Source: a virus. Taken from it: a DNA stretch of 64,000 nt. Location: positions 6,015 to 70,014 of the IMG/VR virus record IMGVR_UViG_3300042453_004296; one strand, 5' to 3'. A program made the position numbers and the translations under genes. Positions 5,969 through 56,681 of this stretch are shown here, in pieces. Numbering within the stretch: the stretch's first letter is position 1; the number at the start of each line of letters is the position of its first letter. The notes beneath the pieces are model-generated. The model was given only the letters and a program-made list of their open reading frames with translations. It was not told where the DNA came from and made no database searches.

Positions 5969-6499
5969 TCAAAGACCCATGTAAGATTTGATCTGCTCAA
6001 TTCTTTGCTCTGTTGTACCTGATATGATGCCTATGCTTTTGATATGGTGTAGGTTTTCAAATATAGTATTTTTAATAGCCATATCAATTAAATTACGATA
6101 ATCAGCATCTGTTTCTCTAACACCATTATCCTCAATATCTACACCAGCAGGTGATACATAAAATATATAATCATAATCCCAGATGAATGGAGCAGCATAT
6201 TTAGTAAATGCTACTTTATCTTCATCATGGATTGATTGAGCACATTTAGCAAATGAAATAACATCAATAACTGTTCTATCAGTAATAACATTTTCTCTCA
6301 TTAATTCAGAACAACGTTCAGCTAAAAATATTGTTTGTCCCTTTAATGTACTGTCTGTATTTAATGGAATACCTAAATCACGTAAGTATTTACTACGTTC
6401 AGTAGCAAAAAAATAATCCTTAAATTCAGGTAATTCTTTTAAAGCATTTACTAATGTAGATTTACCTACACTCATTGTCCCACAAAATCCTATCTTCAT
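5969..6499 (-). CDS. P-loop NTPase / nucleotide kinase-like protein (NadR/AAA_28-type)
   Basis: N-terminal GTMSVGKST, DRTVID and EDNGVR motifs. Confidence 0.8.
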   Translation of the reverse strand: MKIGFCGTMSVGKSTLVNALKELPEFKDYFFATERSKYLRDLGIPLNTDSTLKGQTIFLAERCSELMRENVITDRTVIDVISFAKCAQSIHDEDKVAFTKYAAPFIWDYDYIFYVSPAGVDIEDNGVRETDADYRNLIDMAIKNTIFENLHHIKSIGIISGTTEQRIEQIKSYMGL

Positions 6500-52761: not shown

Positions 52762-52822
52762 GTGTGTTATGTGTTTTTATTAGGCTATAAATGTACGACC
52801 CAGATCTGGCAGATCCAAATTT

Positions 52823-53103: not shown

Positions 53104-53340
53104 TTATTTATTTAAACTCATACCTTCGTATCTCAATAATGAATTACAAATGTAACTCTGGATTCGAGATATGCTTTTACAAGCATTTACATTATCAATT
53201 ATTACTTTTTTGTCTTCGTCTTTAATGTTCTTATTATTAACGAATTCGGTAATAAATTGTTTTGCTTGATTAACATCTCTGATGCTAAATACTTCGAATG
53301 CGATCTGCTCGAAGATTGATTTGATTTGAAATTTGCTCAT
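53104..53340 (-). CDS. Small early protein
   Basis: 78 aa; promoter at 53358. Confidence 0.7.
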   Translation of the reverse strand: MSKFQIKSIFEQIAFEVFSIRDVNQAKQFITEFVNNKNIKDEDKKVIIDNVNACKSISRIQSYICNSLLRYEGMSLNK

Positions 53341-53385
53341 GTGTTTTAATTTTCTATAAATGTACGACCAAACTTACATAAGGCC

Positions 53386-53418
53386 AAAAAAGTAGCGGTC
53401 ACCTTTGTGAACCGCTAC
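53386..53418 (-). terminator. Rho-independent terminator
   Basis: GTAGCGGT...ACCGCTAC followed by a T run on the minus strand. Confidence 0.8.
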
Positions 53419-53448
53419 CCCAAAACACACACATGGCTAGTGCTAGGC

Positions 53449-53652
53449 TTACGCCACTACACTATTCTTCTGGCGACGAGCACTGATGCTATACATCGCG
53501 TTAGCAACCTTGTCATTGACATTTCGGTTACCATTCATAATACTTGTAACGTGACTAGCTGAGTAGCCTGTCATTTCTGAGATGCGACTCACATCACCTG
53601 AACGTTTGCGGGCTGTAAAAAACGCCTGCTTTGCTGTACGATTTAACTTCAT
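53449..53652 (-). CDS. Helix-turn-helix DNA-binding protein (XRE/Cro-like)
   Basis: VSRISEMTGYSASHVTSIMNG.R HTH pattern. Confidence 0.7.
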   Translation of the reverse strand: MKLNRTAKQAFFTARKRSGDVSRISEMTGYSASHVTSIMNGNRNVNDKVANAMYSISARRQKNSVVA

Positions 53653-53704
53653 AACTTATTTATTTAATTATTTATATTCTAATATAATATCGTCTGATCA
53701 ATCC

Positions 53705-53960
53705 TCCAACCTACTTTACAACTTCATCCACCCGAAGGTGAGAACCCAGGCTGATCAGGCCTAGGTTCTAAATGGGAGCTTTGCATCGCTTTCGAATCCC
53801 ATGAGTGAGTGGTTTTTCGTCTAGCGGGCGTACGTTCCCACTGATATAGCCTTGCCTAAGGGCCTCCCTCATTTGTATTGATGTTATGGTCTGACTTGTA
53901 TACAGACGGTACCCCTTTAAATTACTCACTAACCCTAGGTGTAGGTAGCATAACAATCCT
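53705..53960 (-). ncRNA. Candidate structured non-coding RNA
   Basis: Multiple stems, a UUCG tetraloop and long-range complementary segments directly downstream of tRNA-Leu. Confidence 0.55.
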
Positions 53961-53966
53961 TTTTAG

Positions 53967-54052
53967 TAGCCGGGGTGGGAATCGAACCCACACTGCCATT
54001 TCTGGCAACAGGATTTTAAGTCCTGCGTGTCTACCTGTTTCACCACCCGGCC
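53967..54052 (-). tRNA. trnL: tRNA-Leu(TAA)
   Basis: GGCCGGG/CCCGGCT acceptor, anticodon arm CAGGA-CTTAAAA-TCCTG, long variable arm TGCCA-GAAA-TGGCA, T loop TTCGATT. Confidence 0.93.
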
Positions 54053-54088
54053 GAGTGGGGGCCCAATCGTCACCGGGCCCCAGCAGCA

Positions 54089-54383
54089 TTACGCTGCTGC
54101 TTCAGTCTCTTTAGCCTTAGCTGGGCGACCGCGTTTAACGATTCCACCATTTGCTTCGGCGCGTGCTGCGCGAGCTGCTAAACGTGCTTGACGGGCTGAT
54201 CCCTCTACTACGGGACGACCTCTTTGTTTTGTTCCTTCTGGTTCCATAACCTTGATTTTGATTTTTAAATTATTTTGTTTATTAAACTCTGCAATCATTT
54301 CTTCAAGTACAACTGACTTGATAGTGCTTGCTTTTTTGATTCCTGCTTTTGTTGCTGTTGCTACTAATTCTTGTCTGTTCATG
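54089..54383 (-). CDS. Basic protein with two AT-hook-like motifs
   Basis: KQRGRP and KRGRPAK; probable start MNRQEL at 54383; promoter at 54409. Confidence 0.75.
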
Positions 54384-54445
54384 TGTTTATGTTTTTTAAT
54401 TATTTTATAAATGTACGACACTAACTTTGCAATGGCACGTCTTTT

Positions 54446-54670
54446 CTAACTTTCTTCTTCTTCTTCTGCATCCATGTTTTCAACCCACACCTCGTCACTC
54501 TCACCTACATAATACACTGCGATACCGTAATGGTCAAACCTACCATTGTCTTTTAGATAATTGACAATGTCATCATCTATGTAATGAGCATCCAACTCAT
54601 ATACTTCGCTTTCTTCTAAATTTGAGAATCTCTCATAATTCTCTTCTACAAACAATTTTAATTTATCCAT
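54446..54670 (-). CDS. Very acidic small early protein
   Basis: About 24 D/E versus 5 K/R in 74 aa (hand count); promoter at 54695. Confidence 0.75.
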   Translation of the reverse strand: MDKLKLFVEENYERFSNLEESEVYELDAHYIDDDIVNYLKDNGRFDHYGIAVYYVGESDEVWVENMDAEEEEES

Positions 54671-54731
54671 TTCTATGTGTTTTAATTATGCTGTAAATGT
54701 ACGACACATATCTTGCAGTGGCACGTCTCTT

Positions 54732-55187
54732 CTAATTTTCTCTCAAATATTTTTCTGCTTGAGTCCAGTTCTGGAACCATGGGTTGTCAGCGTAGCTGTT
54801 TACTCCCACATTTAAGTTTATTCCACCTGGGAAGTGATAGTCGATGTGTCTCAACACTTGCTGCACCAGTGAAGACTTGACGTACACCCAAAACTGGCCA
54901 CCTTCACTGTCGTACTGGATCCCCTCACCTGCCTTAAATACGGTCTGGAGCGAATGCTCAATATCGTAGTGCGATAATTCTCCTTCAGCACATCCCGTTA
55001 AACAAATAGATAACTTCTCACTAGCTGGGATCAATGCCTTGATATCATTTTCAATCTCTTCGGCAAACATCCTGTAAGTGTCTCTCTCAAACTGGGTTGG
55101 TTCCCTGTCTTTGTAAGTTTCTTCCCACGCGCTTTTTTGCTTTACGATTAATTGGGCTACTTTCTTTTTGATTTCTTGTGTTGTCAT
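54732..55187 (-). CDS. Early hypothetical protein
   Basis: 151 aa; promoter at 55205. Confidence 0.75.
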   Translation of the reverse strand: MTTQEIKKKVAQLIVKQKSAWEETYKDREPTQFERDTYRMFAEEIENDIKALIPASEKLSICLTGCAEGELSHYDIEHSLQTVFKAGEGIQYDSEGGQFWVYVKSSLVQQVLRHIDYHFPGGINLNVGVNSYADNPWFQNWTQAEKYLREN

Positions 55188-55252
55188 GTGTTTTAATTTT
55201 TTCTAAATGTACGACACGCTTTTTAAATATCCAAATAAGCTGTGATCTATTT

Positions 55253-55522
55253 CTAATCCAACTTAATAATAATAGCCTCAGAAAAAGTCCATCCTACATA
55301 CTCTAATTCATGATTAATGCCTAATTTTTCACAAAATGAGGTTAATTTACTTTTAGTTATACTAACACCATCATAAAATGCATTTACAATTTCAAACTGG
55401 TTTTCACGATAATTCATACGCATCATAGGATACGCATTGAATTTATCATAAATCAATTTTTTAAATTCCTTTACTGTAATATTAGTGTTAGGAATTACTT
55501 TAGAGGTGTGTTTTTGTTCCAT
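55253..55522 (-). CDS. Early hypothetical protein (probably leaderless)
   Basis: 89 aa; ATG 4 nt after the TACATTTA element. Confidence 0.7.
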   Translation of the reverse strand: MEQKHTSKVIPNTNITVKEFKKLIYDKFNAYPMMRMNYRENQFEIVNAFYDGVSITKSKLTSFCEKLGINHELEYVGWTFSEAIIIKLD

Positions 55523-55770
55523 GCTCTAAATGTACGACACATTCTCTGGGTAGCCAAACAGGTTGTTCCTTCTGTTTGCTCCTTCTGCTCCTCCTGAATA
55601 TGTATAATGGAATTTCAATTCGTGAAGACGACACATTCGGCAGGTACGGAAAATCACTGAAGCTAGTAATGAATGGAAATCAATGATCAAGGTGAGCGGA
55701 TAGATAGACTCACACCTACATACCAAAAAAGAACAGGCGCCACGGCGCCCACCATTGTCTTTGGTTTCCC

Positions 55771-55861
55771 AGTCCGCTCCTCCTAGTCCGTTCCTCCTAG
55801 GCTGCTCCTCCTGCTGCTCCCTCTGTCTGATCCTCCTGCGGATCCCAGGCTGTTCCTCCTG
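55771..55861. repeat. Short tandem repeat array (AGGAGG on the minus strand)
   Basis: agtccgctcctcct / agtccgttcctcct / aggctgctcctcct 14-mers; CCTCCT at 55779, 55793, 55807, 55832 and 55855. Confidence 0.8.
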
Positions 55862-55926
55862 CGCGCGCACAGGGTACTGTCCCCGGACCCACATTTGATT
55901 TACTCCACTGCCTCCACACTGTTACA

Positions 55927-55944
55927 CCCCCCCCCCCCCCCCCC
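55927..55944. repeat. C18 homopolymer (G18 on the minus strand)
   Basis: Directly visible; exact length may be unreliable. Confidence 0.7.
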
Positions 55945-56289
55945 ACGCAGTCCTCTCCCCTGGGTCTTGCAACCTGTCCTAAAGGTACGACAAAATTTTT
56001 AAAAAGCCAAATCCTTTTTGATATTCTTTTTGTTCCTTTTGTTAATCTTTTTGCAAGAAAATTTGGGGGCCCCGGGGAGGGGTATTACCCCCGCGCAAAA
56101 ATGCAATAAACCATGCGTATATACTTTGTCGACAAAAGAGAGTGGAGGGGCGGGGCATGGGGGTTAATCCCCTCCCATCCTTATACCACACACCATCTCA
56201 CCCTCATTCCACATACTATTCTAATATATCCCTATCTACATATCTACGTTCCACCCTTAGACTAAGGTGGGTCACACTTGGTGACCCAT

Positions 56290-56384
56290 TTCTAATCCTC
56301 CTACCCGCTCCCTCTGCTACCTCTTTCTAATCCTCCTGTCTGTTCCCTCTACTACATTTCTGTTACCTCTATCCGATCCTCCTA
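56290..56384. repeat. Second short repeat array (AGGAGG/AGAGG on the minus strand)
   Basis: CCTCCT at 56297, 56332 and 56378; (C)CCTCT at 56310, 56320, 56345 and 56366. Confidence 0.75.
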
Positions 56385-56681
56385 CACACCCGTTTCGAAT
56401 GAATAATTTTCATCCGTCGTTGTTGTTGTTGTCGTTACTGGATTATTATTATATTCTCTAATTCCGCTCTTTCCCTCCATATGGAGTTCATAATACCGCT
56501 CACCATCTCTTATAGACCAATCTTGTATTCCATCTATAACATCTCTGTTATAAGCGTTAACTATCATCTCACGTTCTTGTTTCATCAACGTTTCTATGTT
56601 TTGAGACATCCAATAATGAAATTGGGTTTCACTCATTTTATAGTAGTTGTCTTTAATTTGTTGTAGTGGTGTTAGTGTCAT
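56382..56681 (-). CDS. Hypothetical protein (ERE.IV.AY family)
   Basis: Shares QEREMIVNAY..ERYY with 56839..57054. Confidence 0.7.
   Translation of the reverse strand: MTLTPLQQIKDNYYKMSETQFHYWMSQNIETLMKQEREMIVNAYNRDVIDGIQDWSIRDGERYYELHMEGKSGIREYNNNPVTTTTTTTDENYSFETGV

Follow-up and report, generated by a model that had tools for sequence, protein, structure and literature searches.

The question raised by positions 53705 to 53960 of the DNA studied here is whether the sequence directly downstream of a phage tRNA-Leu(UAA) gene encodes a structured RNA and, if so, how far that RNA extends and what it might do. The window is a stretch of 64,000 nucleotides (nt), positions 6,015 to 70,014 of IMG/VR virus record IMGVR_UViG_3300042453_004296; its features are given in plus-strand coordinates and all those located here lie on the minus strand, the strand of tRNA-Leu(UAA). 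An earlier note, made from the sequence alone, had read about 250 nt at this place as a single, highly structured and possibly pseudoknotted non-coding RNA of a new class. Comparison with relatives bears out the central part of that proposal, as the fold is conserved, non-coding and without a match in Rfam 15, and an uncatalogued structured RNA family with a narrow distribution is real. That an RNA gene exists at this locus is highly probable. The conserved RNA amounts to about 135-150 nt, because the first ~90 nt of the supposed unit are an exchangeable spacer that most relatives lack or replace by another sequence, and the pseudoknotted architecture finds no comparative support. On balance we lean towards an explanation in which the minus-strand interval from about 53873 to 53729 would be the gene for a stand-alone structured RNA of roughly this length, derived from a tRNA transcript, acting in trans as a stable folded molecule and perhaps pairing with itself.

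Relatives were first reached via the neighbouring AT-hook protein and then by pattern scans of viral and metagenome contigs. The loci linked to the AT-hook protein show 80-92% DNA identity to window positions 53877..53734 and always lie downstream of tRNA-Leu(UAA), and their flanking proteins are merely 60-78% identical. Scanning viral contigs returned 31 stretches, nine of them matching the core profile, and metagenome contigs yielded 41; two more viral-contig patterns added one diverged new member (L097) and then none. After removal of duplicates and truncated copies, 36 distinct full-length sequences, which stem from independent contigs, made up alignment A3. Model R1 scores 163.6 bits over 53718-53881, and neither in the window nor in 39 other loci does it find an additional or diverged copy. 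Carriers of the RNA are lake-water myophages related to the Flavobacterium phage 'immuto'. A search of 185,579 species genomes with one core pattern gave no matches, and model R1 found none in the cultured phage immuto; the family therefore seems confined to uncultured lake phages. A DNA search of 50,697 phage records matched the tRNA part and nothing else.

The comparative fold comprises five helices, in which P1, P2 and P3 form a three-way junction, P4 is a bulged hairpin and P5 an 11-base-pair (bp) hairpin, followed by a small hairpin, P6, that was not counted. Within A3, 96.3% of 1236 cells are paired, against 23.9-47.9% when the partners are slid, and covariation among the homologues is evident in 13 pairs (92 cells) that change on both sides. 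The observed covariation score was reached by none of 500 shuffles, a lenient control in that related sequences can beat shuffles without any structure. Thermodynamic signals are weak: the folding of the 286-nt region does not stand out from that of shuffled sequence (z = -0.87, matched by 41 of 200 shuffles; other strand, z = -1.41), and the 147-nt core alone fares modestly better (z = -2.42, 4 of 200 shuffles). The case for structure therefore rests on comparison with relatives.

The same pair counts bear on the idea that the element works at the level of DNA, as an operator for the adjacent helix-turn-helix (HTH) protein or as an origin. P5 is indeed an inverted repeat, three loops carry 6-bp palindromes, and a gene for a DNA-binding protein lies ~90 bp downstream. 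However, G-U cells outnumber A-C cells about 7 to 1 (98 versus about 14), a strand-specific, RNA-typical excess that places the fold on the tRNA strand rather than on the complementary one. Stem sequences, moreover, change freely while pairing is kept, and the core occurs also without the HTH gene. A DNA-level element is in our view very unlikely.

All complementary stretches listed in the earlier note are present on the tRNA strand. Of its seven helices, four hold up against the relatives and two are unsupported, and it had missed P1, P2, P3 and the inner part of P4. In the conserved core (helices P1-P5, 53741..53873), the three-way junction domain spans 53803..53870. P1 pairs 53864-70 with 53803-09, and its alignment pair 18:80 is A-U in 30 sequences, G-C in five and G-U in one, so that 5 of 36 sequences show A-U replaced by G-C in a compensatory way. 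P2 (GCC/GGC; 53861-63 with 53849-51) closes the invariant 9-nt loop CUUAGGCAA at 53852-60, and pair 23:33 is C-G in 34 sequences, A-U in L097 and U-G in one. An alternative P2 proposed by RNAalifold, GCC-CUUA-GGC, was dropped, since the joint changes C23 to A and G33 to U in L097 fit pairing of 21-23 with 33-35. P3 (53837-45 with 53819-28) shows five pair types at 45:59 and carries the loop AACGUACG at 53829-36, with consensus AACGUAYG; the A-rich joiner of the junction occupies 53810-18.

P4 (53774..53800) begins with the outer stem GGG/CCC, 53798-800 with 53774-76, which is uninformative because it never varies. It continues with a 7-nt bulge, A-UUCGAA (53791-97), and an inner stem, 53788-90 with 53777-79, closing the loop GAUGCAAA; inner pair 97:110 is C-G in 24 sequences, A-U in nine, U-A in one and U-G in one. 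The stem previously drawn between 53797-802 and 53772-77 thus survives in its GGG/CCC part, and its remainder is not conserved. The 11-bp stem 53759-69/53741-51 corresponds exactly to P5 (53741..53769; 7-nt loop CUGAUCA at 53752-58), where both partners have changed in 7 of the 11 pairs and pairing is kept in 99.2% of cells. Also upheld is the CACC-UUCG-GGUG tetraloop hairpin at 53729..53740, here P6, which is identical in three relatives (L058, L065 and L082), most others having CCUU-UCUU-AAGG, another small hairpin, in the same place.

Between the tRNA and the core lies the variable spacer of ~90 nt (53874..53965, module A), containing the long-range stem UUGUUAUG/CAUAACA with the hairpin GUCUG...CAGAC inside it. 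This module is common to only four other loci (L054, L086, L092 and L095) and nearly identical among them; the proposed stems 53949-55/53882-88 and 53903-07/53889-93 are kept in four relatives, one with a different loop, and show no covariation. In other contexts the same place holds nothing, so that the tRNA abuts the core, or a different hairpin module with GAUUAUGAGAC repeats, extra tRNAs or tRNA-like elements, and in eight contexts no more than 1 nt separates the end of the tRNA from the aligned core. The suggested pairing that would link the ends, 53941-46 with 53709-14, has no counterpart in relatives. The crossing helix on which the pseudoknot depended, 53924-30 with 53804-10, competes with the 3' strand of P1 (53803-09), the helix with the compensatory change; as it pairs the spacer with that strand, it would form in place of P1 rather than as a pseudoknot.

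Two observations concern the spacers of relatives. In many of them (e.g., L017:3270-3323) the spacer is a hairpin module closed by CCAG/CUGG with two to three copies of GAUUAUGAGAC, whose UUAUGAG resembles the 5' strand of P1 and could pair with CUCAU of the 3' strand, making an alternative pairing of this module with P1 possible. Related loci also contain a tRNA-like family of ~30 distinct elements (e.g., L011:3325-3401, L015:3545-3651, L002:4840-4948 and several in L004), none of which occurs in the window. These elements have a common acceptor stem (AGUCAGG/CCUGACU), a type-II-like D arm, a T arm (ACAGG-UUCGAAU-CCUGU) and a hypervariable centre of 25-85 nt where the anticodon arm should be. 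ARAGORN missed most of them and assigned the few that it called to Ser, His, Pro, Val or Leu.

A protein product of the 62-amino-acid open reading frame (ORF) at 53768..53956 would be a competing account, and the frame is open in the window. Half of it, however, lies in the non-conserved spacer, indels, single-base ones among them, fall inside it at alignment columns 46, 61, 75-76 and 90, and stops interrupt it in relatives, the longest open frame being 29 codons in L011 and 33 in L051. No Pfam or PHROG family matches it. The ORF is not conserved as a gene, and a protein-coding explanation deserves almost no credence.

Known RNA classes were sought with the 4227 models of Rfam 15, which include GOLLD, ROOL, manA, RNase P, tmRNA, 6S, signal recognition particle RNA, group I/II introns, self-cleaving ribozymes and riboswitches. 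Over the whole window just three tRNAs passed the gathering score, and at E up to 10 nothing within 53300-56500 overlapped 53705-53965, in line with the earlier statement that RNase P, tmRNA, signal recognition particle, 6S and group I signatures were not recognised. A tRNA or tRNA-like cloverleaf was rejected, as neither ARAGORN nor RF00005 makes a call in 53705-53965 and P4 stands outside the closure of P1. A bacterial Y RNA of the YrlA type was likewise set aside, because Rfam gave no match and neither G000 nor the complete 160.8-kb genome G001 encodes a TROVE domain. A related 172-kb genome without the RNA (G002, the record of L013; L098) does encode a TROVE (Ro60-like) protein, at 22.7 bits against a cut-off of 23. 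A literature search on the loop sequence returned unrelated primers only, and one on immuto-type phages and RNA found nothing relevant; absence of the RNA from print is judged from these searches and Rfam, and motif lists supplementing the large RNA-motif surveys might hold it.

Genomic context confirms the position beside phage tRNA genes. In 40 of 44 contexts a tRNA-Leu(taa) precedes the core in the same orientation, the remaining four having 0-620 nt of upstream sequence, and the core is always the last element of the tRNA cluster. The HTH gene follows in 36 of the 40 readable contexts, at a near-constant 210-231 nt from core start to ATG. Such regularity is what would be expected of a cis-acting 5' leader, a riboswitch or stabiliser, of the 67-69-amino-acid HTH gene, with the 5' end of the mRNA produced by tRNA processing. 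Consistent with a leader are also the lack of a U-tract after P5 in the window, the absence of a recurrent promoter motif between core and HTH gene, and a canonical hairpin with a U-run after the HTH gene. However, the other four contexts (L054, L056, L092 and L095) have unrelated genes downstream, and the HTH homologues found by protein search lack the core in five of five cases (L002 and L007-L010); the RNA seems not to depend on the gene that follows. The 50 nt ahead of the ATG in relatives also resemble the upstream motif of other genes, which suggests that the HTH gene has its own promoter. The HTH gene is probably a neighbour and not part of the RNA, and a leader function appears improbable.

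The recurrent motif of this phage, GTCGTACATTTATA, occurs at 16 sites in the window against 0.9 expected (e.g., 54406-54419, 53355-53368 and 52786-52799, minus strand), lies ~20-25 nt upstream of many start codons and has the variant TCGTATATT in relatives; we take it for a probable promoter or leader element specific to the phage. Copies stand before the AT-hook gene and before the one that follows the HTH gene, and none precedes the tRNA, the core or the HTH gene; read-through transcription may occur at this locus. In L054, two copies of the promoter-like upstream motif flank tRNA, spacer and core. A sigma-70 scan of the minus strand in the region of the element found nothing, and a simple terminator scan of 53300-54500 found none.

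The constant place at the end of the cluster would equally suit a 3' trailer of the tRNA operon, one that does nothing in trans and consists of processing signals and a terminator, P5. In most relatives P5 forms a strong hairpin and a U/C-rich run, UUUCCCUUUCUU, comes after it; this hairpin may be no more than a terminator, which would count against a stand-alone RNA. In the window, though, P5 is followed by CACCUUCGGGUG, which has no U-tract. A terminator, moreover, needs neither an invariant loop nor a three-way junction with invariant joiners and loops nor a bulged hairpin, and the tRNA regions of the related L002 and of phage immuto end without the core. A mere trailer is accordingly a minority reading, one that we hold to be rather unlikely.

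Under the stand-alone reading, the core would be transcribed in the same direction as the tRNA-Leu(UAA) cluster, as its last element, and freed by processing of the tRNA 3' end, much as the earlier note had supposed for its 5' end. This mode of release is reasonably probable given the arrangement of the loci. The core is covered by contigs from RNA libraries (two runs of a single study), one of these contigs linking it to a tRNA; such contigs may contain DNA, are silent on transcript ends and strand, and leave bins whose lack of coverage means nothing, so they constitute weak evidence of core expression.

What such an RNA might do is suggested by its loops, three of which are self-complementary. 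The P5 loop holds the palindrome UGAUCA in all 36 sequences, and the P3 loop, CGUAYG, is self-complementary in 33 of 36 when G-U pairs are counted. The P4 bulge hexamer could be read in 56 loci: 46 carry UUCGAA, a count that includes two in which a flanking base is altered or lost, seven carry UCUAGA and two UUGCAA; the hexamer is palindromic in 55. Because these variants are all palindromes, the changes are compensatory within the hexamer, and a palindrome kept by paired changes is predicted by a symmetric intermolecular duplex and not by a T-loop. These hexamers are not unusual in the genome as a whole.

It is the T-loop that gives substance to another explanation, in which the RNA mimics the tRNA elbow or T-loop and binds or decoys a tRNA-binding protein, or else binds the neighbouring tRNA-Leu. 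The majority bulge UUCGAA is a T-loop sequence, P2 is D-arm-like (a 3-bp stem with a 9-nt loop containing GG), its loop portion UUAGG is complementary to CUUAA (positions 32-36) in the anticodon loop of tRNA-Leu(UAA), and the core is located among tRNAs and tRNA-like elements. However, whereas UUCGAA fits the T-loop consensus (U-N-N-R-A, with a U...A pair 1/5), UCUAGA in seven loci and UUGCAA in two misfit it in the same register, which weakens the T-loop reading. P4 lies outside the P1 closure, unlike in a cloverleaf, ARAGORN and the tRNA model give no match, and the complete genome G001, a carrier of the RNA, has no Ro/TROVE gene. Mimicry of this kind strikes us as quite improbable.

In the stand-alone RNA, the P4 bulge and the P5 loop would instead engage in symmetric loop-loop pairing between copies, giving dimers or closed oligomers, and the invariant P2 loop CUUAGGCAA would form a separate recognition site for a partner. 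Self-association is a tentative proposal, drawn from the hexamer patterns. More tentative still is its fullest form, a compact self-assembling RNA with a new ~140-nt fold and kissing hexamers, in which each subunit would display CUUAGGCAA for a common partner; candidates for that partner are a host translation or RNA-processing factor, or the anticodon loop of tRNA-Leu. The prediction that follows is of two palindromic contact sites, one of them changing in a compensatory way, and the RNA is small enough for in-vitro transcription, chemical probing and cryo-electron microscopy.

Several points weigh against this explanation as a whole. The case for self-pairing amounts to just two independent hexamer changes, and L051 has lost the palindrome of the P4 bulge. 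Diversity is low (mean column identity 80%; effective sequence number of the model, 1.24), for which reason P1, P2 and inner P4 rest on one covarying pair each, and outer P4 has none. For the 5' domain, energy minimisation of the single sequence gives a fold other than the comparative one, and the family is narrow, as the empty searches of species genomes and of immuto indicate.

The P2 loop has a second setting. The exact P2 16-mer is also found in GC-rich viral contigs, 50-70 nt before start codons, and a scan for CUUAGGCAA followed by GAUGGAGCC returned 101 stretches with 67 distinct sequences. In 58 of the 67, the CUUAGGCAA loop is closed by a 3-7-bp stem of widely varying and freely covarying sequence. 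The leader, located in L025, L028, L034, L036, L038, L041, L044, L047, L049, L053, L055 and L174-L262 (e.g., L028:1846-1925), measures ~75 nt and consists of the CUUAGGCAA hairpin, a second GC-rich hairpin, CAUYCCC, a Shine-Dalgarno-like GGAG and the ATG; it matches nothing in Rfam. It occurs in GC-rich phages and prophages. Ten of the proteins encoded downstream were tested; nine are structural components of the virion, namely major head proteins (four), major tail or tail-tube proteins (four) and a tail sheath, and the tenth has no assigned function. Bacterial genomes contain 73 exact 16-mer matches, ~4-5 of which, mostly in Alphaproteobacteria, look like the leader.

Leader and core RNA share the identical 9-nt loop, a short closing stem and a second hairpin next to it, but the leader is shorter, ends in GAUGGAGCC and ATG, belongs to GC-rich phages and, past the first hairpin, is different throughout. 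From the identical loop we suspect a recognition module common to both. Should the RNA bind a protein or a tRNA, the P2 loop would tie it to the leader of the most highly expressed virion genes of many unrelated phages, which would hint that phages have in common an unrecognised means of engaging a host factor.

Known systems resemble the core RNA in part. In Escherichia coli, 3'ETS-leuZ is cut from the 3' trailer of a tRNA-Leu operon and acts in trans as a short, little structured, base-pairing sponge with Hfq; both RNAs lie downstream of tRNA-Leu, but the core RNA is highly structured and its hosts are probably Bacteroidota. The pRNA of phage phi29, which serves DNA packaging in small podophages, has a three-way junction and oligomerises by loop-loop pairing through loops that are not palindromic, and retroviral dimerisation (DIS) hairpins carry a 6-nt palindrome in the loop; neither is related to the core RNA in sequence, and no packaging link is seen for the latter. 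GOLLD and ROOL are often borne by phages or prophages beside tRNA genes and are ~3 to 5 times longer than the core RNA, with an unrelated architecture and no Rfam match between them and it.

GOLLD and ROOL are reported to form RNA-only homo-oligomers (Nature 2025, PMC12286853). The manA RNA motif (Rfam RF01745) is likewise a small structured phage RNA, without sequence or structure match to the core; it is described as less than 200 nt, from T4-like aquatic phages and of unknown function (Genome Biol 2010, PMC2864571). According to a preprint, phage-associated RNAs below 200 nt assemble through kissing loops, and manA self-assembles by intermolecular kissing loops (bioRxiv 10.64898/2026.07.01.735769). 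Unlike the core RNA, which closes a tRNA cluster, manA occurs in 5' untranslated regions of metabolic genes, the hosts and phage group differ, and self-assembly of the core RNA is proposed from its loops. Structured phage RNAs adjacent to tRNAs are a recurring and poorly understood class, and if the RNA described here self-associates, it would add a new fold to a very short list of natural RNA-only assemblies.

The viral record that holds the window is 70 kb long, with an estimated completeness of 44%, and lake-water metagenome is the label of the DNA runs containing the stretch. The window encodes a portal protein, a large terminase (TerL) and baseplate proteins. TerL shares 61.7% identity with its counterpart in the 160-kb Flavobacterium myophage 'immuto', the closest cultured phage, which makes a Bacteroidota host likely. 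The order on the minus strand is the gene for the 110-amino-acid AT-hook protein (54421..54089; ORF list and protein family searches), two hairpins, tRNA-Leu(UAA) directly upstream of the element (53966..54052; ARAGORN, and RF00005 at 59.5 bits), the region under study, and the 67-amino-acid HTH gene (53449..53652), which has a weak PHROG match to a transcriptional repressor (E = 0.002). The two adjacent GC-rich hairpins, CAGCAGCG-UAAU-GCUGCUG and GGGGCCC...GGGCCCC, occupy 54053-54088 between the AT-hook gene and tRNA-Leu, and L002 has hairpins resembling this pair at the equivalent place.

Further along the same strand, 55520-56400 is an intergenic region of ~850 nt and up to 61% GC, without a credible ORF and without a match at the gathering score of any Rfam family. 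Another non-coding RNA, larger than the first, or one of sponge-like type may be encoded here. The region contains three clusters of AGGAGGA-type purine-rich repeats and a run of 18 G, and it is 82-85% conserved in the closest relatives (L058, L065, L069 and L082).
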